A stretch of DNA of 64,000 nt from Amphiscolops sp. MND2022 (Eukaryota), in assembly GCA_964187785.1 (NCBI GenBank), contig OZ076409.1, positions 77,626,001-77,690,000 on the forward strand, read 5' to 3'. Positions 38,954 through 63,999 of this stretch are shown piece after piece (within the stretch, counting starts at the first letter, position 1; each line of letters opens with the position of its first letter). The position numbers were made by a program, and so were the translations under genes. The notes beneath the pieces were generated by a model. That model saw only the letters and a program-made list of their open reading frames with translations, searched no databases and was not told the origin of the DNA.

Positions 38954-39090
38954 TTCTGACTGCGTCACAAAACGTAATTCCTGTCAGTTAAATTTCTTCG
39001 GATCTGACTGCGTACACAACGTTATTCCTGTAAGTTAAATTTTTCTGATTCTGACTGCGTCCTAAACGTAATTCTTGTCAGTTGAAAAGT
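38954..39090 (+). repeat. Three ~48-bp tandem repeats in the 5' leader of D (copy at ~41754-41890)
   Basis: TCTGACTGCGT..AACGT(A/T)ATTC(C/T)TGT(C/A)AGTT occurs three times. Confidence 0.8.
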
Positions 39091-42000
39091 TTTTCGTTCC
39101 AACCACCATTGATTGAATTCATCTTGGTATTTCCTTCTCTTTTTTCAGTTCCAACCGCAGACGTGCGATACGTGTTGGCCTTTCTACAGTGCTATCCAGC
39201 AATTTCTGCTGGTAAAAATACTTTGATTCTAGTTGCTTGGATCAACTTCAACGTTGGCACACCTACAATACATAAAACTACAACACTTCTTTTCATAAAC
39301 CTCTTTCGAACATTTTCAGTAAATTCTCACGACAATATTTTTCCAAAACAAAGCTTAACGGATCCAAATATTTTACATGAACATTTAAATTAATACACTA
39401 ATCCTAAATAACCTCTTATATATTTCACTATCGTACATCATATATTACAACTTCTAAAATAGAACTTCCCATCCCAATGACAAATGCCTTCAGCTGATGA
39501 TATACTTAGGTTCATCATTTTTTTTGTTTCGCTTCTGCATTCCTTGCTGGTATTGCTCTTTTCTTTGACAAATTTTTACTACCTTTTAGAACCAAGTTCT
39601 AAGACACAACTCCCATCTTTATGCTTCCAAGTAAAGTACTACCTCTTTTCGGACTACTTAGTATATATCATACGTTTTATACACTTATTCCTTACATCCC
39701 GAATAAATTCCTTCTTTTTCTTTCTACAGTACTTACAATATTTTTCCAAATTGTCTTTGTCGACCAAATCATACCATATAACTATAACATTACTTCCCAA
39801 AATCTTATTATACACTACATATATCTATTACGGAAAACCTATTATTCCAAATAATCATTCAGAAACACAATGCTCCCTCCTCCATTTTTACTATCTACAG
39901 AACAACGTCAAAAACGTTCTTTAACTCAAGATGTAATACCATTTTTAAACAACATTATATTTCAATACACAAATCCACTCTCATTTGAAACAGAACCTCA
40001 AAACATACATACCAATCCTTTGGTAAGAGAACATTGTGATTCTTATCTATATTACTTCCAATACAAGACACTAGAACCTTTACGTTCACAAAATCCATTC
40101 CAAATTATTTTTAACCCAGTTCCAGGCATAAATACAGAAACATATTATAAAACAATTCACCCACAAAATATAACTTTATCTATACATGATGTTTTTATTA
40201 CTTACATGAACAAACTTATAAAACATAATGGAAATCCAGACTCAACGGTATATCATCCTTCACATCTAGAAAGTCTCAAACAGAAACATGAATATTTCGA
40301 AGTACAAGATCTTGGAACCAAGATATCACGACATAATAATCCTCCTTTTTGCTTACAACAAGATATACTACAAATTAAACAATTTCAAAACAGATTTTTT
40401 CAAAACATTATACTTAATGAAGATACAGTACCACTAATCAAAGTCTTTTCACATTTTATGTTAAAATTTTCCCGATTTCTATACCAATTAATATGGGAAC
40501 AACAAGATCAAACTGCTTACATTAACTTCCATCAAGTACTAACAGAAACTGAATTACTACCATTCTTAATTAGAAATACAAAAAACATGTACAATACAGA
40601 GAGCCTACCTCATTTAACATCACTTCTTTTGAATTATTCAATTTCGATAATAATTTCATTATAGAACATTCTGAAACATCAGATAATCGCGCATATACTA
40701 CTTCCAATCTCATTTATGAACCTTTGCTTGACGAATATAATCCTAATATATTACAACATGATACTGGACTGAATATTTTATATCCCAAACAAAATCACAC
40801 AACTTTACAACTTAATAATATACCAGACCCTTGTGACACAGCTACAATACAAAATGTATCAGAATTATCTGAGGAAACTACAAATAATCCACAAAGTATT
40901 ACAATAACTGATGATTCAAATATAGTACAAATTCCTGTTCATAACATAACACAAAATCTAATCCATGATCAAACTCGAATTGATACTACTCAAAATACAA
41001 ACCGAGACAATACTTCATCATTAAATACTCAAACACTCAGATAACTCAAGAATTTCAAACACAACAACCCTTACCACAAAATTATGACCCACCTCCACCT
41101 CATTGACAATACTCTCTTCAAAAACTACTCCACATAATTCTCCTCAACAAGGATCTTCTAATACCCAAATCACAAATAGAGTACAAATTCAAACAACAAC
41201 TCCAACAACACAAGATACACAAGATAACTTAACTAATACTTTGTGACCAAATAATTAGTAACCCATTTATTTCACCTTACTGTTGTCGCTCTTGATTAAT
41301 TAGCATGTCAATATAACTAATTGCAATCATTGATGAGTTTGTAGAATATATCTACTCAGAGAAAATTAGAATATTAACTGAAGAACGGTTTCACTTTGAA
41401 AGAAGACCTTAACTGAGATCTCAGAGATATTGCAAGATAGCTAGCTAGTCAGTCAACTTGGTACCCTAGACGAATTTCCTGTTAAGAATTGCAGACTTCT
41501 TATGTGCTCAATAAAACAAACAAGAACTACTACAACATACATTTTCAACTGCTCAATTGGTGCTGCGGTCACGAAAATTCTCTTTTCTCTCCCTCTAGTA
41601 CCCCAACTTCATTCTTCTTGTACATCTTTTCTCGACTTTCTCATCAGATACCTCATTGTTCGACAAAGTGTCTCACCTCCTCTCTGTATAGTACATAGCT
41701 ACCAACTCAACGTTGCAACCAATTTCTCCTGAAATTGATTCATGTTGTTATGGTTCTGACTGCGTCACAAAACGTAATTCCTGTCAGTTAAATTTCTTCG
41801 GATCTGACTGCGTACACAACGTTATTCCTGTAAGTTAAATTTTTCTGATTCTGACTGCGTCCTAAACGTAATTCTTGTCAGTTGAAAAGTTTTTCGTTCC
41901 AACCACCATTGATTGAATTCATCTTGGTATTTCCTTCTCTTTTTTCAGTTCCAACCGCAGACGTGCGATACGTGTTGGCCTTTCTACAGTGCTATCCAGC

Positions 42001-42283
42001 AATTTCTGCTGGTAAAAATACTTTGATTCTAGTTGCTTGGATCAACTTTAACGTTGGCACACCTACAATACATAAAACTACAACACTTCTTTTCATAAAC
42101 CTCTTTCGAACATTTTCAGTAAATTCTCACGACAATATTTTTCCAAAACAAAGCTTAACGGATCCAAATATTTTACATGAACATTTAAATTAATACACTA
42201 ATCCTAAATAACCTCTTATATATTTCACTATCGTACATCATATATTACAACTTCTAAAATAGAACTTCCCATCCCAATGACAA

Positions 42284-45200
42284 ATGCCTTCAGCTGATGA
42301 TATAGTTAGGTTCATCATTTTTTTTTGTTTCGCTTCTGCATTCCTTGCTGGTATTGCTCTTTTCTTTGACAAATTTTTACTACCTTTTAGAACCAAGTTC
42401 TAAGACACAACTCCCATCTTTATGCTTCCAAGTATAGTACTACCTCTTTTCGGACTACTTAGTATATATCATACGTTTTATACACTTATTCCTTACATCC
42501 CGAATAAATTCCTTCTTTTTCTTTCTACAGTACTTACAATATTTTTCCAAATTGTCTTTGTCGACCAAATCATACCATATAACTATAACATTACTTCCCA
42601 AAATCTTATTATACACTACATATATCTATTACGGAAAACCTATTATTCCAAATAATCATTCAGAAACACAATGCTCCCTCTTCCATTTATACTATCTACA
42701 GAACAACGTCAAAAACGTTCTTTAACTCAAGATGTAATACCATTTTTAAACAACATTATATTTCAATACACAAATCCACTCTCATTTGAAACAGAACCTC
42801 AAAACATACATACCAATCCTTTGGTAAGAGAACATTGTGATTCTTATCTATATTACTTCCAATACAAGACACTAGAACCTTTACGTTCACAAAATCCATT
42901 CCAAATTATTTTTAACCCAGTTCCAGGCATAAATACAGAAACATATTATAAAACAATTCACCCACAAAATATAACTTTATCTATACATGATGTTTTTATT
43001 ACTTACATGAACAAACTTATAAAACATAATGGAAATCCAGACTCAACGGTATATCATCCTTCACATCTAGAAAGTCTCAAACAGAAACATGAATATTTCG
43101 AAGTACAAGATCTTGGAACCAAGATATCACGACATAATAATCCTCCTTTTTGGTTACAACAAGATATACTACAAATTAAACAATTTCAAAACAGATTTTT
43201 CAAAACATTATACTTAATGAAGATACAGTACCACTAATCAAAGTCTTTTCACATTTTATGTTAAAATTTTCCCGATTTCTATACCAATTAATATGGGAAC
43301 AACAAGATCAAACTGCTTACATTAACTTCCATCAAGTACTAACAGAAACTGAATTACTACCATTCTTAATTAGAAATACAAAAAACATGTACAATACAGA
43401 GAGCCTACCTCATTTAACATCACTTCTTTTGAATTATTCAATTTCGATAATAATTTCATTATAGAACATTCTGAAACATCAGATAATCGCGCATATACTA
43501 CTTCCAATCTCATTTATGTACCTTTGCTTGACGAATATAATCCTAATATATTACAACATGATACTGGACTGAATATTTTATATCCCAAACAAAATCACAC
43601 AACTTTACAACTTAATAATATACCAGACCCTTGTGAAACAGCTACAATACAAAATGTATCAGAATTATCTGAGGAAACTACAAATAATCCACAAAGTATT
43701 ACAATAACTGATGATTCAAATATAGTACAAATTCCTGTTCATAACATAACACAAAATCTAATCCATGATCAAACTCGAATTGATACTACTCAAAATACAA
43801 ACCGAGACAATACTTCATCATTAAATACTCAAACACTCAGATAACTCAAGAATTTCAAACACAACAACCCTTACCACAAAATTATGACCCACCTCCACCT
43901 CATTGACAATACTCTCTTCAAAAACTACTCCACATAATTCTCCTCAACAAGGATCTTCTAATACCCAAATCACAAATAGAGTACAAATTCAAACAACAAC
44001 TCCAACAACACAAGATACACCAACCTCCGCGTATGCCCCAGCTCAAAATACTCGAACACAAAATATGCAAACTGCATTAACAAATACGACCCTTCATTCC
44101 AGTCCATCACCCATTTACACTACCTCTAGAAATCTCTCTAGACCTCCATTGCAAACTATTCCACCTAACCCATTATCGTATAGCCTTACTAGTACGAACC
44201 CTAACAATACACAACCAACTATAACAAACAACAACCGACTCAATACTCAAAATCCTTTTTCCAAATCTCAACAATCAAATACATCACGAAAAATGCTAAA
44301 AACACTCATTATCAGATACCTAATCCTCCTTCTACAACAATTAGAACTAATCCTCACATAAATGCTACATATACACAACCTGTTACAAATCCATCCCATA
44401 TGTCGTCAAATGTCTTCAATATACGTATGAACAATACCGCTCCTCCATATACAATACATCAGTCTTGCACAACCAACATACATAACTTCTTCTGATTCAA
44501 ACTCTGAACCTTTTAAACCCTTTGATGGCTTAGATCATAACTATACACCTGAAGAATACTTACAACATATTGAGGCACGTGTGACCTTCTCACTCGGTTT
44601 TCAACCTACGTCTGACTATGAACATTAATTTTAGCACGCTCGAATAATGGCTTTCATACAATGATCTTTAACTGGAACAGCTCTTAGCTGGTACATCCGT
44701 TTAAACGACACCTATAAACAAGATTGGCAAGCTTTTGTACAAGCCTTTAAAAAACAATTCTCATCACAGAAAAACGCTTACTATGCTCAAGTTGAAGCCC
44801 TTAACCTAACTAAAAAAGATAACGAAACAGTATGTCATTTTGCACTCAAAATTCAACAGCTAGTTGTAACGAAAACGCCTATACAATCAATTTAAATTGT
44901 AATTAAACTTTCACAGAAGGACTACCCAAAAATCTCAAAGACTTTGCTAACAAGCGACAAGTAAAACACTCCTCTACTGTTTTAGAACCTTCTATTCTTT
45001 TTCATACACTCGTAAAACTTGTTGATACCGAGGACATTGCATCAACTCACTCCATAGAACGCCGAGGTCATTGAACAAATCACTCCATCTCTGCTTGTTT
45101 CAAAAAACAACGAGATGATGAAGATAAAAGAGATGCTGATGAAAATAAAAGAGATGCTTATGCTAGGCCGAAATCTCTTCCGAAGTCTTTTGTACAGTAC

Positions 45201-48143
45201 TTTTTTCTCCCTCAAACGAAAGAACAAAAAGATATTATACACGCCATAGAAGCAGAAGTACTTCACGAAAAAATTATTATAACAAAAATACAAACTCACA
45301 AAACAGATATCGCTCTACATCCAGAGACCGATTCAGTTTAGACAAAAATACTACCCCTCCACAATACACTCGATCACGATATGACGATTATAAACGGGAT
45401 TCATGATCCTATCGCTTCCTTTACAGATCTTCGTACAGATCCCCTTATAGACATGACTCTCGCCATAGATAGAGATCATGTTCATAATCAAGAAATAACA
45501 ACAATTTTACAAGATACACATCGTCCTAAAGAACACCTTCAAGACCAAGAGATTCCAGTTACTCTAGATCACGTTCACATTCAAAAACAAGAAATAAACT
45601 TAATACAATACAACCACAAGACCAAAATGACCCAATCAACTTTGAAGTACACATGTATCACCCGACTGAAATGGCAAATGTTGTAACACCTACAAGTCGG
45701 TTCTATTGTCTTTACATACATACACCATCAAATCAAATTAAAACGAGACAACCCATCAAGATATGAAATATCACTCGTTTTAGATAGTGGTGCTTCTATA
45801 TCAGTATTTACCTATCCCACCTATATTACTAATGCAAAACTCCTCAATATCAAACAGAACAATCCACCTAATCCCTCAAAAACCTTAACTGTTGCAAATC
45901 AAACTGAAGTACCCATACTACATTATGTTACTATAACTTTAAACACAACGATAGAAGATGACTCTTGTCAATTTACAAAACCTTTTGCAGTAGCAGATAA
46001 AAAATACAATGTTCTTGGTACACCCTTCTTTGAAGAAAGGATACAGAATATAAACATACAAGATCTTACACTACAGTTTAAACACCAATCAACAGTACAC
46101 CCTAACTATACAAAAGTTACATCATTGTTATCCAAAGATTACCCAAATTTTTCATACATTCATAGAATAAATTCTAAAACACAAATACGTTTGAAACCTA
46201 AATCTTCAAAACATTGCACAATTTTAAAACCACACCACTTCTCCACTAAGATTCGTACAACATTCACTTTTATAGAAGTTTTCCCAGAAGATAAACCAGA
46301 CACCCGTGCAACTCCTATACAAAACTCTACGAATCATATTGCAACACTACCTACAGGACTTATTGGATTTATTGAAATTCCGATTACAAACGGAAAACCC
46401 AAATATCATCATGTTTATGATATTAACACTTTAATACACAATGTAACCCATACATAACATCCTGAAATAACAGAAATTATTCCACAAACTAACTACTCGT
46501 CACAATATAAAGTTGACACAGTCCCTTCCATCAATTTTCAATACACCAAGTGTACATGACAAATTCTGATATACCAACAAAAACTTCCTCTCTGTACAAT
46601 GTACAACCTACTTCACATACTTCAAAACATCGATCTTTCAATTCATTACCGTGCACTACAGAAAATCTCAACTTTATTAACAAGTTCAATTTTCAGTTCT
46701 CTGACCTTACCGATACCGAATACATTACACTTTGCAATTTATTACTTAATACAAAACATGTTATGCAACCCATAAAAATGGTGTTGGCAAAATTGCAACT
46801 CCCCTTCGAATCAGATTAAAACCCAATGCACAACTTATTACACAACGTCCTTCTAAAGTACCAATACAGAGACAAACTCAATACTCTTCTTAAAGAACTA
46901 GAAAAATATAACAATATATAACAAATTGGTTCATCTCCACACGACAAACCAGTTTATGGTACAACTTATCTAAACCCTTTCGTTTTTATACCTAAAGGAG
47001 ACTCCATTAAATACGTTTTAGATGATTCTTGGCCTACTGAACCCCTTGCTCCTCAATTAGCACGCGCAAATAAAAAGTACAAATGTGAAATAGATCTAAC
47101 AGATCTTATGTACGCATAAGCCCATGATGAAGAAACACCACTTGATGAAGAAACGATTAAATGAGCTGTTAAAAAGTTGTGTGGTGGTTTCTTTTAGAAG
47201 TTTTATTACTGACATAAGAAGTCTAAGATTTTAACAGCAGCGTCATCTTATCTTATATCTGGTAGCTAGCTAGTTCTGAGTACAATCTATTTCTGAGATC
47301 TCAGTTCTTGAAGTGCGGGAGGAAGACCGATTGTTAGGATGAATTCTCAATTTCTCCGAGTAGATATATTCTATTAACTAGGGTAGGTTTCATCAATTAA
47401 CAATGTGACAGCAACAGGATGAATCGGGGAAACTTGGTACAGGATATATTAAATGAAGTTTCTTAGCTTCCAAATTAGATTCCATTTACTAATTGCTTTG
47501 GTTAAGAGTTCAGAGTATTTCAGATTTATAGAATCGTTGAGGACATGCATCATGGCATCACATAAACTCACAAGTTTCTCCGCAGGTGATAAACTCTTCG
47601 CTTTCATACGAGGCTTCTATGGTCTTGAAGGAATGCCCAATTTTTTTTTATAAAACAAATGTCAACTTTCTTTAAAACTCTATCAGAACAAGGTTTTGCT
47701 CTTGTTTACATCGATGACAATTTACTTTCATCGAATTCTAAAGAACATAAGTTTCGACTTCTAAAACAATTGCATATCAGTAAAATTATCTCCTGGGAAA
47801 TTTTTTTTATGATCCTTAAGGTTAATTTCCTTGGACATGAAATTGGCCACAATACAATTAAACCTATCCACTCAAAAATTGCCGCTATCCACAAAATTCC
47901 TTCTCCTACTGGAAAAGTAGCTCTAATGAGTTTCATTGGCGCACTTAACTTTCACACCAAATTGATTGAAAAATTGAATATAAACCTCAAACCATTTTAC
48001 GATCTTTTACCTGAAGATACCCCATGGAAATGGACAAACGAACAAAAAACTCTTTTTCAAAAACTCAAAATGTCCCTTACTTCTGAAACAGAACTTACCA
48101 TACCAAATACCAAACATCCATTTTTCATTACAGTAGATGCTTG
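42284..48143 (+). pseudogene. gag-pol: gag-pol remnant of element D
   Basis: PFDGLDHNYTPEEYL (~44520), LDSGAS (~45780), RT ALVYIDD (47659 ORF). Many stops and frameshifts. Confidence 0.85.
47162..47562 (-). mobile_element. Solo LTR (401 bp) of a family-2 relative inserted antisense in RT of D, TSD TAAA
   Basis: Minus strand reads TGTGATGCCATGATGCATGTCCTCAA...AACAGCTCA. TAAA flanks both sides, and removal restores EETIKLTSFS. Confidence 0.88.
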
Positions 48144-49158
48144 CAGTAGACCAAAAGTGAAGAAGTTTCGAAAAGTCAAGGTTCGAGTGAGAGTTCATTT
48201 TCAACGAAAGTGAAGAGTAGAGCAGAGGCAAAAGTTGAAAAAAATTTTTGGCAATTTCAAGTTTCAAACATTAGAAAACGAGAAGTGACATTTTTTAAGA
48301 GTTCTAAAGAAAAATTTTGAAATTTTTTGGGAATGCTTTTGGGGATTAAAACAAAGGTGTAGAACATGTTTTGTAAAAGAAAAATTTTTGTCCAAAAATC
48401 TTAGAAAATTTCTTGTGCTGTAGGTAGGACTTGTGTTCTGTAAAAGATGGGTATTAGAGATATATTTTTGAAATGTATTATAGATGTAACAACATAATTA
48501 GATAAGATTAAGTCAATGTACTATACACAAGACAATAGGAGGAGCAGATAATATTGTGGTTACAAAGATAATTATCGGTAGAATTTTGAAGGGATTTTGC
48601 AATATAGGGGTAATTATAATACGATTACAGAAGATTAAGATTAGATAAGAGTATATAGCACTGAAGATTAGATAAGGGTATATAGCACTATACTGTATTA
48701 AAGTTATAATTTGATTAAAATAAGTTACAATAAGTTACAAGTTATATTTGTTAAAATTGATTATATAACTCAGTTTGAAAATTGACTCAAGTTTTGATTA
48801 CAATGTTTGAAATTTGGAGTATAGTCCATTGGAGTATGAAGGCCAGTCAAGAAGTCAGCATTAGAGGTGTGAAGACCAGTCAAGAAGTCAACATTTGAGG
48901 ATGAAGACCAGTCAAGAAGTCATCGTGGAGTGTGACGAGGACAAAGTTTGGCAACGTCGATGAACCCAAAGTGTAAATGGATGTTGTTAACCATCGTGTG
49001 TGGGTGGAGTGAAGAGTGTCAGCATGTGTAGGAGAAGTTTTTTGGAGGAGTGATCAGCAACCACATTTCAATGCATCATCGAAAGAAGATGAAAGATTTG
49101 GAGACGAAATGCAGTTGAAGAGTGAAATAGAAGTAAGTAGAAGATTTTGTTATAGAGA

Positions 49159-50031: not shown

Positions 50032-51419
50032 TTAATGAAGATTAGTTGAGTTAAAAAGAGTAGTTATAGTTTCCAAAGCAGATTGAATTGCTTGGGATGA
50101 TTGAGTGATGCGTTGAGAGTCTAAATCGAGTGCTTGAAGGAGTTTGTGTGTTCTGTCATAACAGTGTAGTATATGTGTGAGTGTTGTGATAGGTGTTTCA
50201 GAAGAGTTTCGTTTATAGGGTTCAAGTAAATTTGTTATGTCGCGAAGTGTTCTGTTGTTTAATACAGAGGCGAGTTTGTCAGGTGCGATTTTTATAGGTG
50301 AAGCGTGTGATTTATGTTCAGTTTTTTGTTCAGCTTGTACCATGAAAGAGATAGTTTTGGCAGATATAAAGAGAAGTTCGTTGTAGGAATACGTTTGCTT
50401 GTAGAGTGCTGTATAGTACGTTCTATCTTTATCGTCAAGTGGAGAAGATAATAGGTGTTTAATAACAGTAAGAGGTTTGGCAATTTGAGTAGGAATGTTG
50501 CAAGGCAACAAAAAATCATCGTAATGTATGAGATATTCTTGAGGTACAATAAGTGGGCGTGAAGTATTGTTGTATGGAAGCAAACAGAAGTATTGTTTTA
50601 TAGGGTCATAGTTTCGAAGGTAGCCTGTTATACAGGAGTGGTCCAGAGTGTACATATTTGTCATTGTGAACGGTGATGTATATTTGTAATTGACAAAAAT
50701 GTGATTTTGTGGTTTCGTGTATTGCAGAAACTTAGTGTATGTTTGATGATGAGTAGCTCTTTGTGCTATAGAGAGAAAAGATGGAATGGATCAGATTCAT
50801 CTGTTTTGAGATCCTAGATAGACGGTCGAAGAAAATTGAATTGGAGAGAGAAAATTTTAACTCCATTATCGAGCCAATATTGGTATGGACCCATTATTTT
50901 AGAGGCAATGGATGTGAAGAAGTCTTGATTTTTGTCATATAAGCGAAATGAATAGTCAGTAGGATGCATATATAGAGAAGTTAGCTGTGCTTCAAAGACG
51001 AAATCGTCTGTAGAAAGGAGTGGGATCAAATGATCATCACGATTTGTGCACAGTGAAATTTTTGAAGGTATTGAGGGATGATATACTGGTGACGAAAGAA
51101 AGATTGGACCTTTCATAATTTCATATCGTTTATTTGGAGGAGGTGGTGTCGGTTGTGTATGATCAGTATCATCTTGTGAAGGAGTAGGTTTTGAATTTTC
51201 TTGTTCAACTTTTGTGTGTTCCATTTGTTCAAGAAAAGTTGGAGGTGTTTGTTCAGAAGTCTCAATATAGAGAACAGGAGAATCATTTGAAAGTGGTCTA
51301 GTTATAAGATCTGTTGGGGTTGCTTGTTCAAGCTGTGTTTGTAGATCAATTTGTGCTTGTGTTATTGTTTTAAAAACATCAACAATCACAGTGTTATCTA
51401 TTCCAAGAGGCCTTAGCAC
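50032..51419 (-). CDS. Accessory ORF(s) downstream of env, unknown function (201 aa + 210 aa, probably one frameshifted ORF)
   Basis: Two long same-strand ORFs in AT-rich DNA separated by ~150 nt that is readable with a frameshift. Strand composition matches gag-pol. Confidence 0.55.
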
Positions 51420-51657
51420 TTTAAAGTGAAAGTACTATAAACTACACTAACGAGTGGATTTATCAACTTTACTTGAAGAGTTTTTGAAGACGGTTATTAT
51501 TAGAGAAGTATTATTGGGCTGAGGAAGATGAACTTCTGCAAGAGTTTCGAGCGGTGGAGGAGTAGCAATTGTGAAGAGATAGTAGGCAAGTGTGCTGAAA
51601 GAGAGTTACAGAAAAACTGAGAGAGTGTTTAAGAAGATGGAGGAGGAAAAGGATAGT

Positions 51658-54328
51658 TTATCCGCGAATAGATTTTATTTGTGTATCCGTTGTAGAAGTG
51701 ACAGGATTGTTAAATAAAGTGTCATGTTGAGTAGTTAGATTGTCATTCGGGTGAAAGTTTTTATGAGTATAATTAGGAAGTGAAGGATGTTGAACAGGAG
51801 AGAAAGGAAGTGGAGCTGTTTTATGGTGAGAATTGTGGTGTCGTTTCGGAAACAAGTTGAATTTAGGAAATTGGATTTTGTTAGGACGTTTAGTATAGAA
51901 AGGTGGAGGGGAAGTAACATCTGTAGAATGGTTAATTAAATTTGGAGAATTGTCAATAAAATTATCTAAAGATTTGGATTTTAAAAGTGTACTTTTGGGT
52001 TTTTTGTTTTGAGTCTCATGGAGGTCACTGACCATTCGTGCTGTAAGAACATTAAAAAAACCATGTGCTATAGAACTAAATAAAGTAATATTATTTTTGT
52101 GATTATATTTAATAGATATTGTTTTGTAAAGTTTGACAATGAATGTAAAACAAAAGCTTGTACAAAAAGAAATGTGGAAAAGTATATACCACATTGTGTG
52201 AGAATGTAACAAGGGTATCCAAAAAGTGCAATAAAAGCATCTGAAAACCATGTAGGTGTAAAAAGAGGAGTTAAATTCAAGAGTTTATCATGGAGTCCTA
52301 TACGTAATGTATTGTAAGGATTACCAGAGTCTTGAGGGGAATCTGCATCGCTTTGCCTAGTAAGTGGAGTGTAGAATCAGAATGTTTAGAAAATAAAATA
52401 CGGTTCCAAAATTGATCAAGTTCTGCATTTGAATATATACCAGCATCTTGGGCTGTAAAAGTATTAGGACGTATTGTAGTTGTGATTTGTGAAGGTGTAA
52501 ACATTAGTGGAGGTTTGCGTTTAATAGGTTCAGGTCCAAGAATGTAAAAGTCTTGATCATCTGAATCAGGATCTAGTTCAATAATGTTTCGTGGATTATT
52601 ATCACATGTAATTGGTGTAGCATAATCATAAGTTTGTCTTGTAATAGGATCAACGTACATTAAGGTATCTTTAAAATGTATGGGGATACGGTCAAAGCAT
52701 CTATCTGCTTTGTATAAAGGAGATAAAAATGAGGACAGTCATAAAAGCCAGGCGGTTGAGCCTTCAACGTATAAGAAGTTACTTCTATTACCGGTTAAAA
52801 GGAAACCAGCAAGTTGAGGGTTTTGTACTGACATTGCGAGTATTGTAAGGAGTTGGTATCGTTCTAGTTCACATATTGTATGAACAGTATTTAGTTCTTG
52901 TAATGTCATTGATCTGAAAACATGATTAATAGTATAATCTATTTTGGTGTTTATATGGGCATCATAATCAATAGTAGCAAAATTGTTTGATACATTTAAT
53001 GCAGGGAATACAAATTTATTGTTTGAGGTGTCCAATACTATTTTACCAGAAATATATTCATCAATCATGGAATGAGGATTGGGTTGTCCTGTATGCATAT
53101 TGAAACCATCAGTGTAGGTAACAAAAAGGTCTGAATATTGTGTAGAATAGAGAGGGTCTGGTTTACCACAAAAGGTTTGTGCTGTAGGAAAAACTTCAAA
53201 TCTTGAAAGACTTGGGTTATTTGGATGTTGTGTATGAGGAGCATAAACATAGGGATATTCTGTACCTTTGATACCAGAAGCTGTTTTAGATTTTATTGGA
53301 TGTGGAGAATGTACAAAAGAGTCTGTTTCAATCCAATACCTATCTTCAATTTTAGTCATACGTCCAATAAAGTCTTGTAAGGTAAAAATTAGACAATAAT
53401 CATCATTGAACCAAACAAGAGTAAAAGGGGTTTTTGTAGTGGGTTTACAGAAACCATCTGCAAAGTAGCAGGGTAAGGTATGTCCATCGATTATCATTTC
53501 ATTAGATGTGTCATCATATGTAAGTTATACTACAGAAATTTCTAGTCGCCAACTAACTATGTTGACTTCGAATTGGTGATGAGCAGGACAGTTATGATAA
53601 GGGTTTTGAGTAGGGACTATCCAGTTTTTATCAGCAGGCATAAATGTAGATGTACCTGTATACATTTTGTTCAGTTGATATACAGTGAAAGGAGTTTGAT
53701 ATTGTTCTAAACGTTCTTGAAAATATTGATCTTCTAAGAGTGTAAGGGTTTTGTTGTATTGAAGGTTATTCAGTATTTTATCATTTGTACCATTTAAATG
53801 TCTTATAATGTTTTTACATTCTACTGGATCAAGAGTAACAGGGAGCGGTAATGTATTATGATTCCATACATTTCGATCAACACGACGGTATTTTACGGAA
53901 CCTTGAAAGCATATTTTCCTTTCTTTCTTTGCATAAGCAACACATTTGAAAGCTTTGATGCGTTTAGCTTTTGCTCGAACATTTACACGGGCTTTAACAC
54001 TTGCATGTTTAATGTCGGAAGGAGCTTCAGTGCATTGTTTTACATTGAGTAGATTTAATTGTCTCAGATTGTGTTGTTTTGCACAGTCATAATGAGAAAC
54101 CATGAGATTTGTAATATTTGGGTCATCCGATGGAAGATAGTTGTCTGTGTCAGAGGGTGTTATGGGTATGGAAAAGGTAGAGTTAAATAAATGTAAATAA
54201 AGTATTAAATTTGTTATGTAAAAGGTTGTGTAGGGTTTAAAAGGATGTTGTATACTTAAGACCGGAATATGAGTTACAGAAGACAATTTTGCCATATGTG
54301 ATAGTGGGTATATTAAGATCGCGTTCAA
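51658..54328 (-). pseudogene. env: env-like glycoprotein, chuvirus/gB-like class III fusion type (frameshifted; may extend upstream to ~55.5 kb)
   Basis: Hydrophobic signal-like stretch, then SHYDC...NLLNVKQC, ICELER, AGFLL..EGSTAWL(YDC), CFDRIP..YVDPITR..ITC and GIYSNAEL. C-terminal TM-like region near 52250-52100 and a cytoplasmic tail. Confidence 0.72.
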
Positions 54329-55568
54329 ATTGAATATGTACTACTTCAAAAAGTGCAGGAGAGGTTTTATGTTCTATTTTAGAAACGTGAAATATTGGGT
54401 GTGGATTTAATCCTTGAAATTTGACTTTGACTTCAAATTTAAGTTCTAGATTTGATGTCTGAAGGCGTTTTAGTTCTGTTTCGTTGCGTTTGTGAGATAA
54501 GGGGTCGTTGTTATTAATGAAACGTTCTGCAAGAATTGGAAATCGGGAATCGTTTTGTGGGTCGTAGATGGTTATACCATCGACTCTAAGTGGATAGTCA
54601 GCAAAATTTGGAGTTGGGGGTCTAGAGTGTTCTGCAGTATAGTATTCGGGTAGTTCAATATGTGCAATGTGCAGGAACAGGAGTAGGGATTACTACTTGT
54701 GAAAAAAGATCTCCTGATAGAAATGCAGTCTGTGGGTTAGGTGAGAGTAATGAAGCGGTTTCAAAACCAGAAGTAAAATAGGGAGATTGAAAGAGTTCTG
54801 AAGATGGTGTGTCAGAGGACAATGGTTGAGCGTGTTGTCGTACAAGTCGTAGTGCAGAATTGCTAGAAAGAGCGGAAAAATTGAGTGTTGAAGAGTCTGT
54901 ACTAAGTCTACGTGATGGGAGGTCACGAAGATTATATACTTTGTTCAGGTACAAAAAGTGAGCTTGTGTCTTGTGATGGAGCGTAATCTGAAGTATTGTC
55001 TAAGAGATTTGAGAGTGATGTAGAAGGTTTTCGAAGAGGTTTTAATAGTGGATAAAGTTTTGAAGAAGTAGTGCTAAGTTCTGATGGTAATTTCAGTGAA
55101 GGTAGCTTTGTATATTCAGTATCAGGGATTTGTACAAGATTAAGTTGAGGTTGTAGTCTAACAGTTTTGATAGCTGTAGGATGTTTGTATGTTACGTATT
55201 GTTCAACACTTTCAGGGTTTGGTATGTGTATAATAGGAAAGTTAATAGGAGTTTGTTGAGGACGAGTGTTTTAGGGATTTCAGTTATAAGTGGTCTGTGA
55301 AGAAGCGATGAAGAGGTTGTTTCAGAGATGTATGATCTTGGTCTTTTAGAAGGAGTAGTAGGAGTTACATTACTAGAGTTTGTAGTGCCTGATACTGAAG
55401 ATTCAGGTGTAGAAGGAATACTTGGAGCTGATGGAGATATATCAGAGGGAGGATCCAGGATTGTTGAAGTGTTTTCAACAGGTTATCTTTGAGATAACTT
55501 CTTATGGGTTATATTTCATTCAACTGGAGTGACTAGTTTTGAATGAGCCAACGGATAGAATGACTGGA

Positions 55569-58500
55569 TTACAGTTTTGAAGGTGTAATAAAAAGTCTAT
55601 AATCTAATTTGGGTCGTTGTCGTAGTTTATAAGTAGTTTTTGTGGTTCTGTCAATTAAAGGAGGAAGTGAAGTTGTTTGGTTATTAGATGAGTATCTTGA
55701 TCTGTCACTAGAGACATTTGTGTGAGGGGTATCAATTATATGTCTATATAAGGAGTTGTCATTGGTTGAGGGAGTCAAAGACTTGTCATTGGATAGTATA
55801 GATGGTGTATTCTGATTGGATGTACTAAATGATGATGGCGTTACAAATGTTTGAGAATCTTCTTCTGACAAGGATTCGTCTGAGTTAAAAGGAGAAGAAT
55901 CACTGTTTGCATATTTGGTAGGTTGTGGAATTTGGAATTGAGTTGTGTCTGAAAAGCGCATAAAACTACGCAGGTGTGGATATAAGAGTGGTTCTTTTGG
56001 ATAATATGGGATTAAATGATTTCTGTGGACGTGTACTGTAGAGCCATCTTGTGCAAGTAGTTCATATGTGACATCTGATAATCTATCAAGAATTTTGTAT
56101 GGTCCAATCCGAAGGGGTTTTAGTTTGTCAGAAAAATGAACGTGTGTAAAATTGCGTTTTAAAACAAAGGTACCAATAGGAAGGGGTTTACCTTCATGGT
56201 AAGTTTTTGTAATGTATGCGTGTGAATTGATTTTTCTTAGAGTGTTTTCGTATACTGTAGAATAAATTTGTAACATAGCAGTTTCTACAGCGAGAAACCG
56301 CTGGGGAATGGGTTTTGAAAGGGTTTTATAGAAAAATGGGTTTAAATCTGATTTATCATAATGGTAGTGTGCTGGAAGTTGAGAGCAATATCGTGAAATA
56401 CAAGTTTTAGAGGTGTCTCGGTTAAGGTTCAAATCAAATTTAAGGGGTATTCTGTGTTGGGTGTGGAAAACAATTTCGTGAGGTGAAATGTTGAGTTCTG
56501 AAAGTGGTTGTGAATTATGTGCATAAGCGTACATATGGACTTGGAATGCCCAATCTTCAGGTGTGTCATGTAAGAACATTCGTAGATGGGTACCAAGATT
56601 TCTGTTTTGTACTTCAACCAGGCCGTTTGTCCAAGGAGAATAAGCTGTTCGAGGAGAATGACGAATTCCCATAAGTGTGCAAAGGTGTGCCATTTCTTTA
56701 TTAACATATTCTGATCCACGATCAGTGACAAGATATATGGGTGGTCCAAATTTAATAATCAAATGGTGTAGGAGAGTTTTGATAGCAGTCTTTGCGTTGT
56801 TTGATTTAATGGGTACTGTAACAACAAAGTGACTAAAAGCATCAATTATGACATGTATGTAGGATTTGTTGTGAGAAGGAGGATTAATAGGTCCTTTAGT
56901 GTCCATTGAAATTCGATAGTTGAAAGATGGAGCATGTTTTGAAAATGATTGTGTAGGAGCAGTTTGAATTTTCATATTGAAGTGTTTGTTACGTTGACAT
57001 TCAATACAGTCATGTATGAAAATGGAAAGCCATTTTTCAAGGAATGGAATGTAGTAATATTGTTTGAATGTGTTGTATGTAATTTTCGTACCAGTGTGAG
57101 AGTGTTCATGGAGTTTGTTAAAGACAGTTTTGAACATTCGAAAAGGAAGACATGTACGAATAGTGTCTTGTACAATATTTGGAGTAGGGGGTTGGTTTAT
57201 AACAGTAGGGTTTGTAATATATAGACTAATAAGGTTTGTGGATTCGTCAATGAAAAGTTGTGAAAATCTTTTGTAATATACATGTAAAAATGGAGTACCA
57301 GTGATAAGAGGTGTTACAAATTCGGGTTTTTCATTGTTTAATAACCACGAATAAACAGTTCTAAGAACCGGATCTTGGGATTGTTGTTGTTGAAGAGTTT
57401 TTATGTCTAATGAGTAATCATCTGGAAGGAAGAAACCTTGAAAATAGTTTTTGTACTTAAAAAATGATGTATCATAGAAAGGTATGATTTGTTGACAGTG
57501 TGTGAGAGATGGTAAATTTGGTTGTACATTTATTGCAGAAACTGATTTTTGTGAGGTAGTGTGAGTTGATTGGTTAAGAGTAGAATAATTTTCTGTTTGT
57601 AATGTTGTGTCTTGTAAGAAGGAAGAGTCAGATTTTGGAATTCTGGTGTATATATGATCTTCGTCATCACTTGTAACGTCAGTATCATTAAGTAAGAGAG
57701 ATTGTTGATGAAGGGTTTTATTGTTCTTTTTTATAGGTGTCTTGTACTTAGTTTGAAAAGGAGTTATGGATTTGAATGAGAAGGATTGTAACGGTTTGAC
57801 AACAATGTCATTTCCTTTATCATTGATACGAATAGAGAATTGATCTGTGCCATAATCAGCGAGAATTGGATGAGAGTCATGTTTTTGATGAGGTAAAATT
57901 TCTTCATGTTTAATTAAGTAATGTACAGGTTTAAGAGTGTTATCTTGTAAAAGTGCAAAATCGATTTGTGGTGGGAGCTGTTTATGTTTTAATTGGTTTA
58001 GTTGTAATTCAGCTTTTGTAAAAAAGCGACTCAACATATCGGCAACAGAAAGATTTTTTCCAGGAGTATGAATTATTTTGAGTTTTGAAAATTTTGTCGA
58101 TTGCATTTGAGCTCTGTAGAAACGAGGACTGAGATTACTTTTCTTTGTAAAAGAATGTAATAAAAGTTTGTGATCAGTAAAAATGTGTATTGGATGGGGA
58201 GAACCTATGATGAGAAATTCATAGATTTGGAGTGCGTGTACTATACCAAGAAGTTCTCTATCAAGTGTGGAAAGTTTTTGTTCTTGTGGATTAAGTATAC
58301 GAGAGTTGTATGATATGACTTTCATTTTGTTTTGTTCATTTAATTGAAATAAGACAGCGCCTAATCCAATAAGGGAAGCGTCAACTGTAATGAAAAATGG
58401 ATGTTTTGTATTTGGTATTGTTAATTCTGTTTCAGAAGTGAGAGACAATTTAAGTTTTTGGAATAGACTTTCGTGTTCGTCTGTCCATTTCCAAGGAGTG

Positions 58501-61500
58501 TTCTCATGTAAAAGATTTGAGGTTAATATGTAGTTTTTCAATAAATTTGGTGTAAAAATTGAGTGCGCCAATGAAACTCATTAGGGCAACTTTGCCAGTT
58601 GGAGAAGGGATTTTATGAATAGCTGCAATTTTTGAATGGATTGGTTTAATTGTATTGTAACCAATTTCATGTCCAAGGAATTTGACTTTAAGAAGCATGA
58701 AAAAGGATTTTTCAGGGGCTAGTTTAAGATTGTTTTTTGTACTAATAATGTGTAGTTGTTCTATGAGTTGGAACTTGTGTTCTTTAGAATCAGATAAAAG
58801 TAATATATCGTCAATGTAGACAAGAGCGAAACCTTGTTCTATAAGAGTTTTAAAGAAAGTAGACATTTGTTTTGTAAAGAAGTTTGGTAGTCCTTTCAGA
58901 CCATAAAAGCCTCGGATAAAAGCGAAAAGTTTATCTCCGGAAGAGAAACTAGTAAGTTTTATAGTGTCTTCATCAAGAGGTGTATGTGCATAGGCATACA
59001 TAAGGTCAATAGCAGATTTGTACTTTTTATTTGCGCGTGCTAGTTGTGGAGCAAGAGGTTCAATAGGCCAAGATTCATCAGATTGTTCTGTATTGGAGTT
59101 AAGGTGTCGAGCGTCTAATACACATTTTATTGTATCTCCCTTGGGGATTATAATAAGATGATTTAAATGAGTTGTGCCATAAACGGGTTTGTCTTGAGGA
59201 GAGGAACCAATTTGTTTGATAATGTTATATTTTTCGAGTTCTTTGAGAAGTACGTTAAGTTTGTCTCGGTAGTGAATAGGGACTTTGGAAGGGCGTTGTG
59301 TCATAAGTTGAGCATTTGGTTTAAGTCGTATACGAAATGGTGTTGAAATTTTCCCAACATCGTTTTTATGAGTTGCATAACATGTTTTATACTTGAGTAA
59401 CATATTGCAAAGAGTAATGTATTCTGAATCTGTAAGGTCAGAAAATTGGAAGTAAAAATTTATTAATAAATTTCAGATTTTCAGAAGTATATTGTAGAGA
59501 AGGGAAAATGCGTTTTTCGGAAGTATGAGAAGTAGGCTGAACGTTATATAGAGGAGAAGTTTGATTTGGAATGTCGTTATTTGTCATATAAACTTGATGT
59601 AGAGAGAATTGAGGAGGAGGGGTTGTAGGATCATCATATTGTACGATATAGTTGGTTTGTGGAAGTGGTTCTGTAATATCAGGATGATAAGTATGAGTAA
59701 CATTATGTATTAAAGTATTAATGTCGTTAACTTGGAAGAATTTAGGTTTTTCATTAGTAATTGGAACTTCAATGTATCCAATATGTCCTGTCGGTAATGT
59801 TGCAACATGTTTTGAAGTGTTTTGAATAATAGTTGCACAAATATCTGGCTTGTCATCTGTGAATACTTCAATGAAATTGAAATTTGTACGAAATTTGGTA
59901 GCAAAATAGGTATGAGGTACTGAAGGAAAGAAGTGGTTTTTTGGTGTAGTTGTAAAATGAAGTTTATGATAATTTTTAATTGCAAAGTGTGCAATTTTTG
60001 AAGACTTGGGTTTTAAACGTATTTGAGTTTTTGAGTTAATTCTAAAAATGTAAGAGAAGTATGGATAATCTTTAGATAGGAGTGTTGTGAACTTTGTATA
60101 ATTTGGGTGTGTTTTTGATTGGTATTTAAATTTGAGTGTAAAATCTTGTATGTTTATGTTTTGTATATTGTCTTCAAAGAATGGTGTGCCAAGGATGTTG
60201 TATTTGATATCAGCTACTGCGAAAGGTACTGAAAAGTAACGAGAGTTTTCATCATCAGTGGTGTTCAAAATTATATTTGCATAATGTAAAATAGGAACTT
60301 CAGTTTGGTTTGCAACGGTTAATGTTTTGGAATTTCGAGTTGGTCCAACATCAGAGGTGTGATTTGATCTAATATCTAGAAGTTTTGTAAGAGTTATGTA
60401 TGTTGGGTAATTGAGTACAGAAATGGAAGCACCGCTATCTAGGAGGAATGCAATTTCTAATCTAGATGGGTTGTCTCTTTGTACTATACTTGATGGGGTA
60501 TGTACATATAGTGTATAAAACCAACTTGTAGGTGTGACCGCATTTGCCATTGCTGTTGGGTGATACATGTGTACTTCAAATTTGATAGGGTCAGCTTGGT
60601 CTCGTTGTTGTATCAAATTGATTTTATTTCTAGAATTGGAGTGTGAGCGAGATCTAGAAAATCTAGAGTCTCTTGGTCTTGAAGGTGGTCTATATGAATT
60701 TGTGTACTTTGTGAATTTGTTGTCTCCTGAATAGGAGCGTGATCTATATCTAGGACGAGAGTTTTGTCGATATGGGGATCTATAAGAAGATCTGTAAGAA
60801 GAACGGTAAGATCGAGAATCACGTTTATATGTATCATATCTTGATCTAGAGTAGTGTGGAGGAGTAGTACTTTTGTCATAACGAAGTCTATCTCTATCTC
60901 GAGATGTAGAACGGTATCGGTTTTGTGAATAATTTTTGTGGTAAGAGTTGTCTCGTGAGGTACTTCGATTTCGATATCGATTATCATATTGTTTTGTTCT
61001 GTCATTGGAAGGAGAACGAAAGTACTGAACGAATGATTTTTGTGGCGATTTTGATCGAGCATATGCATCTCGTTTATCTTCATCATCTCGTTGTTTTTTG
61101 AAACAAGCAGAAATGGAGTGATTTGTTCTATGACAGTTTGAGCAATATTTTTTATATGCAGGTTTATTTTTGTTATTTGGGTCTTTGGGTTGTGTATACA
61201 TAAGTTGTTCTTGAGATGAGTGATCAAGAGTTTGAGTGTTCAATTGTTTGTAATATTATTAATTTCAAGTGCAAGATCATGTGTTCTGATTTTGTCGTTT
61301 GCTATATCTTCAGCGTCAACAAGTTTTACTAATGTATGAAAAGGAATTGTAGGTTCTAGAACAGTGGAAGTGTGTTTTACTTGCATTTTATTTGCAAAGT
61401 CTTTAAGATTTTTTGGGAGTCCTTTTGTAAAGATTTCATTACATTTAAGGTTTATAGTGGATGCATTCTCATTACACCAGCCTTTTTCAACCAGCAGTTG

Positions 61501-63999
61501 AACTTTGAGTGCAAAATGACGTACTGTTTCATTATCTTTTTTGGTTAAATTAAGGGCTTCAACTTAAGCATAATAAGCGTTCTTTTGTGAGGAAAATTGT
61601 TTTGTGAAAGCTTGTACAAAAGCGTGCCAATCATGTTTATAAGTGTCGTTTAAACGAATGTACCAGCTGAGTGCTGTACCTGTTAAAGAGCATTGTATGA
61701 AAGCCATGCGACGGGCGTGTCAAAATTTATATTCATGTTCCGATGTAGTTTGTAAACCTAAGGAAAATGTAACACGCGCCTCAATATGTTGTAAATATTC
61801 TTCAGGTGTATAGTTGTGATCGAGCCCATCAAAAGGTTTAATGGGTTCTGATATAGAAGTAGAAGAAATAATATATGTTGGGTGTGACATAGTGTTATGA
61901 GATATAGTAGATGGGGGTGTTGTATTGTACGTAGGATTATTTGAAATATTAGGTAAAGAAGTAGTTGAAGTACTATGAAAGTGAGGGTTAGTTCTAATTG
62001 TTGTTGAAGGAGGATGTGGTATATGAAATTGAGAAGTTTGTAATGTAGGAGTGATTGTATTGGATGTATGTTGAGAAGAAAGAGTATTTAATGGATTGGA
62101 TGTGTTGTAATTTATCTGAGATTGTTGTTTATGACTTGGATTAGTACTGGTGAGACTGTATGATAATGGGTTAGTTAATATAGGTTGTAATGGAGGTCGA
62201 GAAAGATGTCTGGCAGTGGTATAATTTGTAGATGGGTTGGAATGGATGGTGTTAATGTTTAAGGTAGGTTGTGTAGTTTGTACTGAGTTGGTTTGAGCTG
62301 GAGTATAAGTCGAAGTTTGTATTTCAGAAGCTGATGGTGGAGTTGGTGTTTGAAAATGTACTGTATTAGTGTTCTGTGCAATGTAGGGTGTATTTGATGA
62401 GCTTTGTTGAGGAGAGTCATGGATGTTTATCTGAGTTGAGAATTGAGGTGGAACAGAAGGTGGATTATAATTTCGAGGAGATCGTATTTGTGTCTGAGAG
62501 GGTTGTGTAATATTAGTATTAGATGTAGACAAAATAGAAGTATTGTCTGGGTTTGAATTTGAAGTGTTGTCTTGATTTTGGTTTGTAAATTCGTTTTGTG
62601 TGATATTGTGGGTAGGAATTATTACAAGATTTGAATCATCGGTTATTGTAAAACTTCGTGTATTTTGTACTGTTTCTTCAGAAAATTCTGTTGTATTGTG
62701 AATTGTATTTGTTTCAGAAGGATTTGGTTGTTGCATATCTGAGATTTGTGATAATGGTGGGTATAATGGTTGTTCTTGAGGAGGATCAGGATTTTGAAAA
62801 AGATTAACAAGGGCTTCTTGTTCTGGGGATTCTTCTTCTGATTGTTCTGATTGTTGTCTTGTATATGAAGGTTCAACACTAGAGGTTTGTTCTTCAGGAG
62901 TTGTTTCATGAGAAGTATCAGGTGTAATAAAAGGTCTGTTATCTGATGTTTCAGAATGTTCAAGTACAAAGTTGTGGTCTAAGTTTATTTGTTCAAAATA
63001 AATAACATTTAATGAAGTAAGATCTCTGTAATGTAAATGTTTGTTTTCATTTTTTATGACGTATGGTAAGAGTTCTATATGTGTTAATATTTGAGGGAAG
63101 TTAACATAAGCTTGTTGGTCTTTTTGTTCCCAAAGTAGTTGATAATTAAATCTAAGAAACTTTAATAAGAATTGTGTAAAAATTTTGACTTGAGGTATAG
63201 TGTCATCTGTAAGGATAATGTTGTTTAAAAATCTGTACTGGAAATGTTTTATTTGTAAGATATCTCGTTGTAACCAATAATGAAGATTATCATGTCTTTG
63301 GACTTTCGTGTCAAGATCTGGGACCTCGAAATATTCAAATTTGTGTTTTAGTTCTTGTAAATGAGAAGGACGATAAGGTGGTGTGTCTTGGTTTTCATTG
63401 AATTCGATGAATTTTTGCATGTATGTGTGAAAAACATCTTGTGTAGAAAGTGTAATATTTTTTGGGTGTATAGTTCTATAAAATGTTCCAAGGTTTATTC
63501 CTTTAACAGGATTAAAAATAACTTGAAAAGGGGTTTGTGATGGTATAATATCAAGTGTTTTATATTGGATATAATATAGATAAGAATCACATTGTTCTCG
63601 TACTAATGGAATAGTATGAAGTATATGGGGTTCTGTTTCAAATGGAAGTGGGTTTGTGTACTGAAAGATAATGTTATGTAGAAAAGGTGTTAGATCTTGT
63701 ATAAGAGAAAGATTTTGTCTTTTTTCAGTAGTGAATGTAAATGGAGTGGGAAGCATTATATGATATTAAGTTTGGTTAGTACAATAAGATTGCCATAAAG
63801 GATAGATGTATCGGAAAAGAAGATATTTTGTATTGAATTGTGAATTATATGGTAAAATTTGATCTATGAAAACAACTTGTAAGAAAATAGTAAGTGCAAT
63901 ACTTATAGAGAGAAGGAATGGGTTTTGTATAAATTGGATAAGTGTATGGAAAGTGTGGTAAATACTAAGTAGTCCAAAAAGAGGTAGTACTATACTTGT
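55569..63999 (-). pseudogene. gag-pol: gag-pol polyprotein of element C (apparently one ORF, few lesions)
   Basis: PIKPFDGLD capsid-like motif, Zn knuckle CSNCHRTNHSISAC, RS-rich tract, PR LLDSGAS, RT LVYIDDILL, Ty3-type RH TVDASLIGLGAVL, IN HSHTG..CIEC / SMDTKGP / TDRGSEY / GPY. Confidence 0.93.

Follow-up and report, generated by a model that had tools for sequence, protein, structure and literature searches.

We analysed 64,000 nucleotides of the assembly of Amphiscolops sp. MND2022 (GCA_964187785.1, contig OZ076409.1, positions 77,626,001 to 77,690,000 of the forward strand), a stretch hereafter called the window, in which an earlier note, made from the letters alone, had proposed a chuvirus/gB-like envelope gene (env) on a Gypsy-type backbone. 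With good though not complete confidence, we conclude that this broken env belongs to a dead copy of a high-copy Ty3/Gypsy-type long terminal repeat (LTR) element, estimated at about 18 kb, which carries a class III envelope and likely moved from cell to cell. The element also has further genes on both sides of env. Coordinates are collected in Table 1.

All the motifs on which the glycoprotein call had been based were found on the minus strand: HYDCAKQ..LNLLNVKQC, TICELERYQ and CFDRIPIH..YVDPITRQ..ITC, then NPQLAGFLLTGNRSNFLYVEGSTAWL, with the DC that follows it in a different frame, and GIYSNAELDQFWNRILF, followed by a hydrophobic segment and a tail. The span first proposed, 51658-54328, was nearly correct, as alignment of the window copy with a natural relative, P0122, placed the env ATG at 54295 and its stop at 51629-51631. 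Two in-frame stops (53525-53527 and 52739-52741) interrupt the gene, and its reading frame shifts near 52350, 52150 and 51676. The proposed position 3' of integrase holds insofar as env lies downstream of pol, but the two are separated by 1.28 kb in which another broken gene lies. Three consecutive, collinear pieces of env matched the Pfam family PF24664 (Monjiviricetes_fusion; E = 0.001, 0.009 and 8e-11), and a 680-residue env frame with the two stops written as X matched it at E = 8.4e-22 (77 bits, cut-off 27).

When proteins were searched with this 680-residue frame, 171 of 2,952 candidates matched at E ≤ 0.001 (at least 120 listed, all from ENA). The best match was P0122, a natural uninterrupted protein of 901 amino acids (aa) that is 91% identical to the window env and heads a cluster of 1,758 sequences, fragments counted. 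It has a hydrophobic signal-like segment (residues 27-45), a transmembrane (TM)-like segment (715-735) preceded by an ectodomain with 14 cysteines, 10 N-glycosylation sequons, and a long, low-complexity tail of 165 aa; no RX[KR]R cleavage site was present in P0122. Most of the env matches listed cover less than 80% of the query, and full-length envs of 857-923 aa occur in subfamilies that are 91, 83, 61 and 53% identical to the window env. When a profile of env was searched against 1.84 billion representatives, 2,568 proteins were found at E ≤ 0.001 (at least 150 listed). Among the matches listed, full-length relatives from outside the host family were 22-34% identical, leaving a gap between the host envs (≥53%) and the other full-length proteins (≤34%). 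The annotations of 20 distant full-length relatives and of 7 other relatives read only 'hypothetical protein', sequence searches of env against the PDB gave no match, and scans of IMG/VR returned no relative (0 of 15 and 0 of 27 candidate stretches for two env alignments, 0 of 100 for an alignment of the reverse transcriptase, RT). One natural protein of 1,323 aa (P0511) contains most of the env ectodomain, TM segment and tail in tandem twice, probably owing to a duplication or an assembly artefact in one copy.

The fold of env was predicted from P0122 with AlphaFold2. Since 14 close sequences gave a predicted local distance difference test (pLDDT) score of only 33, an alignment of 65 sequences was used instead, which resulted in a mean pLDDT of 69; of the 901 residues, 520 scored at least 70. 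Foldseek searches of this model against BFVD returned glycoproteins of chu-like, xinmo- and qin-related viruses at ranks 1-9 (E = 4e-30 to 1e-25, 12-16% identity), the best being a chu-like virus G (E = 4e-30, 13% identity), with TM-scores of 0.25-0.34 to the BFVD viral glycoproteins. All matches listed in the PDB were herpesvirus gB (best E = 5e-13). Superposition on gB with VIA gave Z = 11.3 and a root-mean-square deviation (rmsd) of 15.8 over 402 residues, and gB domain IV alone gave Z = 8.8 and an rmsd of 3.5 over 155-161 residues. In the ESM Atlas, the top clusters for env were assigned to PF24664 at 0.93. The class III (chuvirus-G/herpes-gB-like) assignment proposed earlier was thus borne out by PF24664, Atlas, Foldseek and VIA, and every positive fold match was to a class III protein; according to the model, the window env is a class III fusion glycoprotein. 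Neither baculovirus F nor paramyxovirus F was among the fold matches listed, a listing that does not exclude an F-type protein.

The backbone of the element is of the Ty3/Gypsy type. The pol domains follow the order protease, RT, RNase H, integrase that is typical of Ty3/Gypsy elements (Metaviridae), with Pfam matches in the RNase H-integrase region to RT_RNaseH_2 (E = 3e-25), RT_RNaseH (5e-23), rve (8e-18), Integrase_H2C2 (1e-8) and SH3_Tf2-1 (5e-6). The acidic RNase H motifs TVDAS, DRELL and FTDHK are kept, and we take them to be catalytic in this first RNase H; no second RNase H was found by Pfam in the bridge of about 320 aa that follows, which was left unfolded. In the PDB, Ty3 RT ranked ahead of three other viral RTs, presumably those of a caulimovirus-type virus, foamy virus and HIV. 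Bel/Pao elements are marked by Peptidase_A17, DUF5641 and DUF1758/1759, and none of these was matched in pol by Pfam, while the Ty3/Gypsy set passed the cut-off. Elsewhere in the window, a second Gypsy-type element has a gag that DUF1759 did match, indicating that this marker is not exclusive to Bel/Pao. The view of the earlier note that pol is Ty3/Gypsy and not Bel/Pao therefore stands on the Pfam domains, the GPY motif and Ty3 RT as best PDB match. Neither outcome that the earlier note had named as refuting it (no class III homology, or an RT grouping with Bel/Pao) was seen, the RT tree being one of unnamed rows.

The RT search recovered 140 proteins among 2,164 candidates, nearly all of which belong to a single high-copy family whose subfamilies lie at about 93, 75, 69 and 44% identity, and the window RT was at most 31% identical to the RTs found beyond its clade. 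In a tree of 22 rows, the window RT, its subfamilies and two metagenomic pols (loci L001 and L004, see below) formed a single clade of 10 rows (100/100, one row only 17% filled) on a stem of 1.39 changes per column. In the natural relative P0089, one frame with a Pfam Retrotrans_gag domain, found also in P0104, runs from gag into RT, and long uninterrupted natural proteins occur separately (P0089, P0025, P0122). In the window copy, gag and pol are broken as env is, and this copy is therefore dead.

Three regions of gag-pol deserve mention in their own right. A conserved N-terminal region of about 240 aa in gag (63040-63756, minus strand), 64% identical in a sister copy, precedes a long low-complexity linker; it is matrix-like by position only and had no Pfam or PHROGs match. 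Between protease and RT lies a beta-rich-looking insert of about 270 aa (59457-60350, minus strand) with no Pfam match, which is reminiscent of the dUTPase-like inserts of other Gypsy elements. In a sister pol family (44% RT identity), the place between protease and RT is taken by an OARD1/TARG1-like macrodomain (PDB E = 3.5e-10), located at about residues 212-355 of P0086 and present in 14 proteins (P0086, P0087 and 12 cluster members); it was absent from the window copy, L001 and L004. No report of a TARG1-like domain in a Gypsy pol was found in a literature search that mostly did not cover subscription journals and Repbase Reports, and macrodomains are unmentioned in the available part of PMC6338049.

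In addition to gag, pol and env, the window copy contains three genes or candidate genes. We trained a codon-frame model on the gag and pol of the window copy, under which env pieces scored z = 5.7-7.3 and four background stretches without long open reading frames (ORFs) scored -0.9 to 2.4. The gene between pol and env, ORF-X, has a Pro/Ser/Thr-rich N-terminal part and a C-terminal part of about 130 aa that overlaps the env start; all four of its pieces carried a codon signal (z = 2.9-5.4), its C-terminal part is 71% identical over 89 aa to P0237 from another copy, and it is collinear in a contig from another run (X1-1). Behind env lies ORF4 (z = 4.3 and 6.2), for which 30 longer relatives were found among 1,644 candidates. 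Its lead relative P0415 (460 aa) represents a cluster of 1,036, a subfamily represented by P0432 (71% identical) has 502 members, and P0441-P0443 (447-505 aa) share a conserved core at 40-44% identity over the matched part and 32-37% over the whole protein. The ORF4 family protein lacks a TM segment and ends in what by eye is a heptad-like helix; no match was found in Pfam, PHROGs or Atlas, and none that was credible in the PDB. ORF4 is a real gene of the family. The last ORF, ORF5, is probably one as well on weaker evidence than ORF4: 14 of the 15 cluster members listed are 150 aa long. Two identifications of ORF5 were rejected, namely a macrodomain suggested by eye (141 of 1,000 shuffles scored as high, and hhalign gave 0.3%) and phrog_13579 (E = 0.002), which was unsupported by a phage search (best E = 3), Pfam and the PDB. 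None of ORF-X, ORF4 and ORF5 matched a Pfam family. Env, ORF-X and ORF4 have the codon-frame signal of pol, which with the collinearity of X1-1 described below shows that they are part of the element, and other copies contain natural env-ORF4 and ORF-X-env fusion proteins (P0154, P0428, P0237).

The ends of the element were reconstructed from other copies, as the window copy's own LTRs are missing or lie beyond the window. Contig X1-1 (9.9 kb) matches the window in unbroken order between 56543 and 48150, a span that begins in integrase and takes in env, ORF4 and ORF5; past the equivalent of 48150 it continues with 435 other letters and then an LTR. This collinearity down to an LTR indicates that the stretch from integrase to 48150 belongs to the element, which in X1-1 runs 4 kb beyond env before the LTR, and that the window copy has lost its own 3' end. 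The RT of the sister copy is interrupted by a solo LTR of the same family, which differs from the LTR of X1-1 at 28 of 401 positions. At the other end, the sister copy begins with a 5' LTR of 464 bp (38292-38755, TG...CA), has a primer-binding-like site from 38758 that begins with TGG, and starts its gag at 39870, 1,578 nt past the LTR start. The TG...CA ends, 4-bp target duplication and TGG-starting primer-like site of the solo LTR and the sister 5' LTR are those of Ty3/Gypsy elements, whose target duplications measure 4-6 bp. The full length is estimated at about 18 kb, the sum of the window copy, the sister 5' end and the 3' end from the other run. Most of the sister 5' LTR, its leader and its gag start lie in a 2.8-kb tandem duplication (38421-44020, 99.6% identical), either a recent duplication or an assembly artefact. 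A hydrophobic ORF of 146 aa upstream of the sister gag (39484-39921) was dropped as a gene candidate (coding z = -1.7, singleton).

Table 1. Coordinates of the element copies in the window, and of the post-env domain in metagenomic loci
Feature	Position	Strand	Basis and remarks
gag, interrupted by stops and one change of frame; has a long N-terminal part, a capsid region, a CX2CX3HX4C zinc knuckle and a stretch rich in Arg/Ser	60470..63756	-	83-93% identical to P0089; 3' boundary approximate
Aspartic protease (LDSG) and insert of about 270 aa ahead of RT	59457..60469	-	Boundaries approximate; similar L004 pol matches gag-asp_proteas
Reverse transcriptase (YIDD)	58510..59457	-	RVT_1 E = 3e-13; Ty3 RT best PDB match, E = 1e-20
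Ty3/Gypsy-type RNase H, bridge of about 320 aa, integrase (H2C2 finger, core, GPY/SH3 tail)	55569..58517	-	Pfam
ORF-X, broken gene of about 430 codons between pol and env	54237..55540	-	Codon signal, other copies; start approximate
env, predicted class III fusion glycoprotein gene	51629..54295	-	Two stops and three frame changes; Pfam, alignment to P0122
ORF4, post-env gene, two pieces	50032..51419	-	P0415 90-95% identical; family protein 460 aa
ORF5, uninterrupted ORF of 150 aa	49159..49611	-	590-member cluster at 90%
3' stretch without long ORFs	48150..49158	-	Window copy stops here, before its own 3' LTR
Truncated sister copy, about 72% identical	38292..48144	+	5' LTR, primer-like site, gag, pol cut within RNase H; contains 2.8-kb tandem duplication
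Solo LTR, 401 bp, TG...CA, 4-bp target duplication	47162..47562	-	Inserted in RT of the sister copy
Post-env domain of about 80 aa	L001:14118-14372, L002:3002-3247, L004:10275-10526 and 11577-11852, L005:2772-3035, L008:5742-5930		Profile search

A scan of metagenomes identified 10 related loci from 39 candidate stretches, of which two hold a pol (L001 and L004) and the other eight, 1-6 kb long, have none. L004 (13.2 kb) contains gag, pol, env and two further ORFs, and L001 contains pol, ORFs of 295 and 1,032 aa, env and an ORF of 617 or more aa. Their RTs are 44-45% identical to the window family, their envs 27% (L004) and 22% (L001), and in the env tree both envs fall among the same set of relatives, with poor support for the deep forks. 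That the nearest outside envs found (22-27%) accompany, in the two loci with a pol, pols which fall into one RT clade with that of the window (100/100) points to an old env-pol partnership. Judging from these sequences, env and pol have likely been together since long before the host copies diverged. The independent env capture suggested by the earlier note is not supported by these data. As an aside, the pol-env spacer of L001 (5959-9880, 4.9 kb) holds its 295-aa and 1,032-aa ORFs, without a Pfam match for either or a PHROGs match for the 1,032-aa ORF, and the L001 element probably exceeds 20 kb because its contig begins within pol.

The clade looks as if it commonly carries extra genes besides env and pol. 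A domain of about 80 aa was found behind env in all five loci with more than 1 kb of sequence there. A profile made from three ORFs recovered the held-out L004 (E = 1e-14) and L005 (E = 1e-6), and a five-member profile recovered L008 (E = 2e-5), among 1,015 sequences. The domain has invariant Y, N, W and Y residues, is duplicated in L004 and is often followed by a coiled-coil-like stretch; it had no Pfam or PDB match. The ORF4 core of the window family is at best a remote member of this domain family, with hhalign giving 10-15%, where a control window of env gave 6%; another comparison gave 0.8%.

Several readings of these data compete with a mobile, envelope-bearing element. The family could now be an ordinary intracellular retrotransposon, with env and the extra ORFs as passengers or in a role other than entry. 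Infectivity is unneeded for a high copy number, the window copy and most database matches are broken or partial, and P0122 lacks the RX[KR]R site. However, purifying selection is implied by the full-length envs of four subfamilies, which conserve their cysteines at identities as low as 53%, gag and pol of the window copy are as broken as env, and the furin site is not always kept in gB-type envs according to the available part of PMC13524379 (Chary & Hayashi, eLife 2026), which makes this reading rather unlikely. A place outside Metaviridae proper, as a separate lineage like Troyka, Odin or lokiretroviruses, would suit the long RT stem, the low identity to other RTs, the large genome with accessory genes and the Arg/Ser-rich gag. 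We hold it to be unlikely, in view of the Ty3/Gypsy set of Pfam domains, to which Retrotrans_gag, RT_RNaseH_2 and GPY/SH3 belong, and of Ty3 RT as best PDB match. Troyka itself, described in the available part of its report as ending in CG...CG, making duplications of 3 bp and lacking both GPY and env (Kojima 2025, PMC12440569), is like the window family a divergent Gypsy-like lineage of animals with a single gag-pol frame, but membership was ruled out by the TG...CA ends, 4-bp duplication, GPY and env of the window family.

The strong form of the earlier note's inference, in which a Gypsy element without env captured a chuvirus glycoprotein recently and in this lineage only, in parallel to the Anakin elements of mosquitoes, is improbable. 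It would fit the BFVD ranks 1-9, in which the closest named structural matches are viral, the wide identity gap around the host envs, and the chuvirus-like length of some contigs with env relatives. Named viral proteins are nevertheless only 13-16% identical to env, as against 22-27% for the envs on related pols; the L004 and L001 envs group within one set of relatives, for all the poor support of the deep forks; env has the codon bias of the element; and PMC13524379, in its available part, argues for an ancient env-pol association. That env is a stand-alone chuvirus-derived endogenous viral element lying by chance beside Gypsy fragments, such as those seen around arthropod glycoproteins without clear Gypsy capture in the available part of PMC10084718 (an earlier and narrower view than that of PMC13524379), can practically be dismissed, being contradicted by the order pol-env-ORF4-ORF5-LTR in X1-1, the env-ORF4 and ORF-X-env fusions, and the gag-pol-env order of L004.

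Several observations weigh against the mobile, envelope-bearing element with its own extra genes that we prefer. Over the whole chain, the env model reaches TM-scores of only 0.15-0.34 with viral G and gB, at an rmsd of about 15-16 Å, so that the class III call depends on E-values and domain-level overlap; the high rmsd probably comes from the orientation of domains in a monomer model. The RT tree contains no named reference sequences, the deep branches of the env tree are poorly resolved, only 2 of the 10 related loci hold a pol, and several env relatives are on contigs of 10-12 kb that could be free RNA viruses. The 18-kb figure was assembled from three sources. Cluster sizes include fragments and reflect recent amplification rather than function; amplification alone could explain the ORF5 cluster, and the codon signal of ORF5 (z = 1.3) is at background. 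Finally, the comparison of ORF4 with the post-env domain was non-significant (E = 0.3-0.6).

Dezordi et al. are said to have described in 2020 the Anakin elements, mosquito BEL/Pao retrotransposons with a chuvirus glycoprotein. These elements are cited as such in the available parts of PMC13524379, PMC10084718 and PMC12440569. Compared by description only, the window family resembles Anakin as an LTR retrotransposon with a chuvirus-like class III glycoprotein and differs in its Ty3/Gypsy RNase H and GPY/SH3 integrase. PMC13524379 reports, in its available part, 1,512 Ty3/gypsy elements that carry an env, among which F-type and gB-type envs are equally widespread, states that the Chuviridae-like glycoprotein known from BEL/Pao elements of mosquitoes occurs beside gypsy pol too (114 elements), and favours an ancient acquisition. 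The pairing of a gB-type or Chuviridae-like env with a gypsy pol, which the earlier note had treated as news, was thus already published across metazoans. Like the gB-type 'ancient errantiviruses' described there, the window family has a Ty3/gypsy pol, the order gag-pol-env, LTRs with a primer site and many copies, and its predicted class III ectodomain lies between signal-like and TM-like segments downstream of pol. It differs in length, estimated at about 18 kb here against 8.2-12.1 kb from LTR to LTR for gB-type ctenophore and tunicate elements, a range drawn from the 7 rows with LTR coordinates among 25 available, in windows of 9-17 kb that may have cut off longer elements. It also differs in the extra genes on either side of env, the word 'accessory' occurring 0 times in the available main text of that paper. 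The primer-site core of the window family was in none of its 7 supplements as available, and Xenacoelomorpha, Acoela, Chaetognatha and Placozoa had 0 matches in its genome list, meaning only that these hosts were unsurveyed. Within the same literature coverage as above, accessory genes in Gypsy elements of the gB type were the subject of no paper that we found.

With the Monjiviricetes glycoproteins (PF24664) and herpes gB, the window env shares the predicted class III fold, a cysteine series and a central helix. Unlike viral G and gB, to which it is 9-16% identical, it has a low-complexity tail and is encoded by a retroelement; even the best chu-like viral proteins are 13-16% identical, as against 22-30% for the envs of related contigs, so that named chuvirus proteins are far. 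Genes beyond gag, pol and env are also known from LTR elements of bdelloid rotifers, whose ORF3s are env-like or encode GDSL esterases or DEDDy nucleases (PMC5408684, available part), and from Cer1 of C. elegans, in which CERV is a Rev-like RNA-export factor (PMC10309623, available part). In contrast to the rotifer ORF3s, ORF-X, ORF4 and ORF5 belong to no Pfam family, and up to three such genes stand alongside env.

Other repeats were noted elsewhere in the window. Another Gypsy-type element of about 17.7 kb (18098-35788) lies between 2.35-kb direct repeats that are 96% identical, with gag-pol on the plus strand (20027-27477) and, downstream of it, antisense ORFs at 27625-28917 (430 aa) and 29721-30293, the latter with a Cys/His finger-like motif. 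By eye, a similar antisense ORF (8954-9664) is present in a related copy at about 7700-16200. Near-identical tandem repeats of 1.63-1.67 kb with a gag-start/LTR-like fragment occupy 1-3600, and a scaffold gap of 200 N was found at about 17500-17730.

On the pattern of established retroelement biology, the element may have worked as follows. Between its two LTRs lie, in order, the primer site, gag-pol, ORF-X, env, ORF4 and ORF5. Genomic RNA would be driven from the LTR, and gag-pol, a single frame in natural relatives, would form a particle and reverse-transcribe. A spliced or subgenomic RNA would probably serve for env, whose product would form glycosylated trimers of the type I membrane class and bring about fusion of the particle, or of the cell producing it, with a target cell. 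The passage would most likely be from soma to germline, as in Drosophila errantiviruses. ORF-X, ORF4 and ORF5 are likely accessory proteins. By analogy with CERV of Cer1 and the complex retroviruses, there is about an even chance that they would regulate RNA export and expression or antagonize host defence. The occurrence of full-length env in four subfamilies, together with the conserved core of ORF4, suggests that both were kept by selection.

A Gypsy pol with a gB/chuvirus-like env is already in print, and by itself the window family would be one more example. Its added value lies in the anatomy, namely the size and the extra genes, which had been overlooked. More tentatively, and somewhat short of probable, it may represent a deep and so far undescribed clade of invertebrate endogenous retroviruses of the complex kind, Ty3/Gypsy-related and from 13 to more than 18 kb long, with an ancient class III env and an accessory-gene family of its own. 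Such a clade would have been amplified thousands of times in one animal genome, whose phylum the published survey possibly did not cover. The post-env domain duplicated in L004 would possibly survive as ORF4 in the window family. If true, this would be an invertebrate counterpart of lentiviral or foamy accessory genes. As several diverged, high-copy subfamilies are available, selection on env and the extra genes is directly measurable, and the extra genes are new candidates for regulators or antagonists of host defence. Envelope-bearing invertebrate elements are usually drawn as gag-pol-env, whereas the clade described here seems to keep conserved extra genes, which would make it the closest invertebrate parallel to the complex retroviruses.

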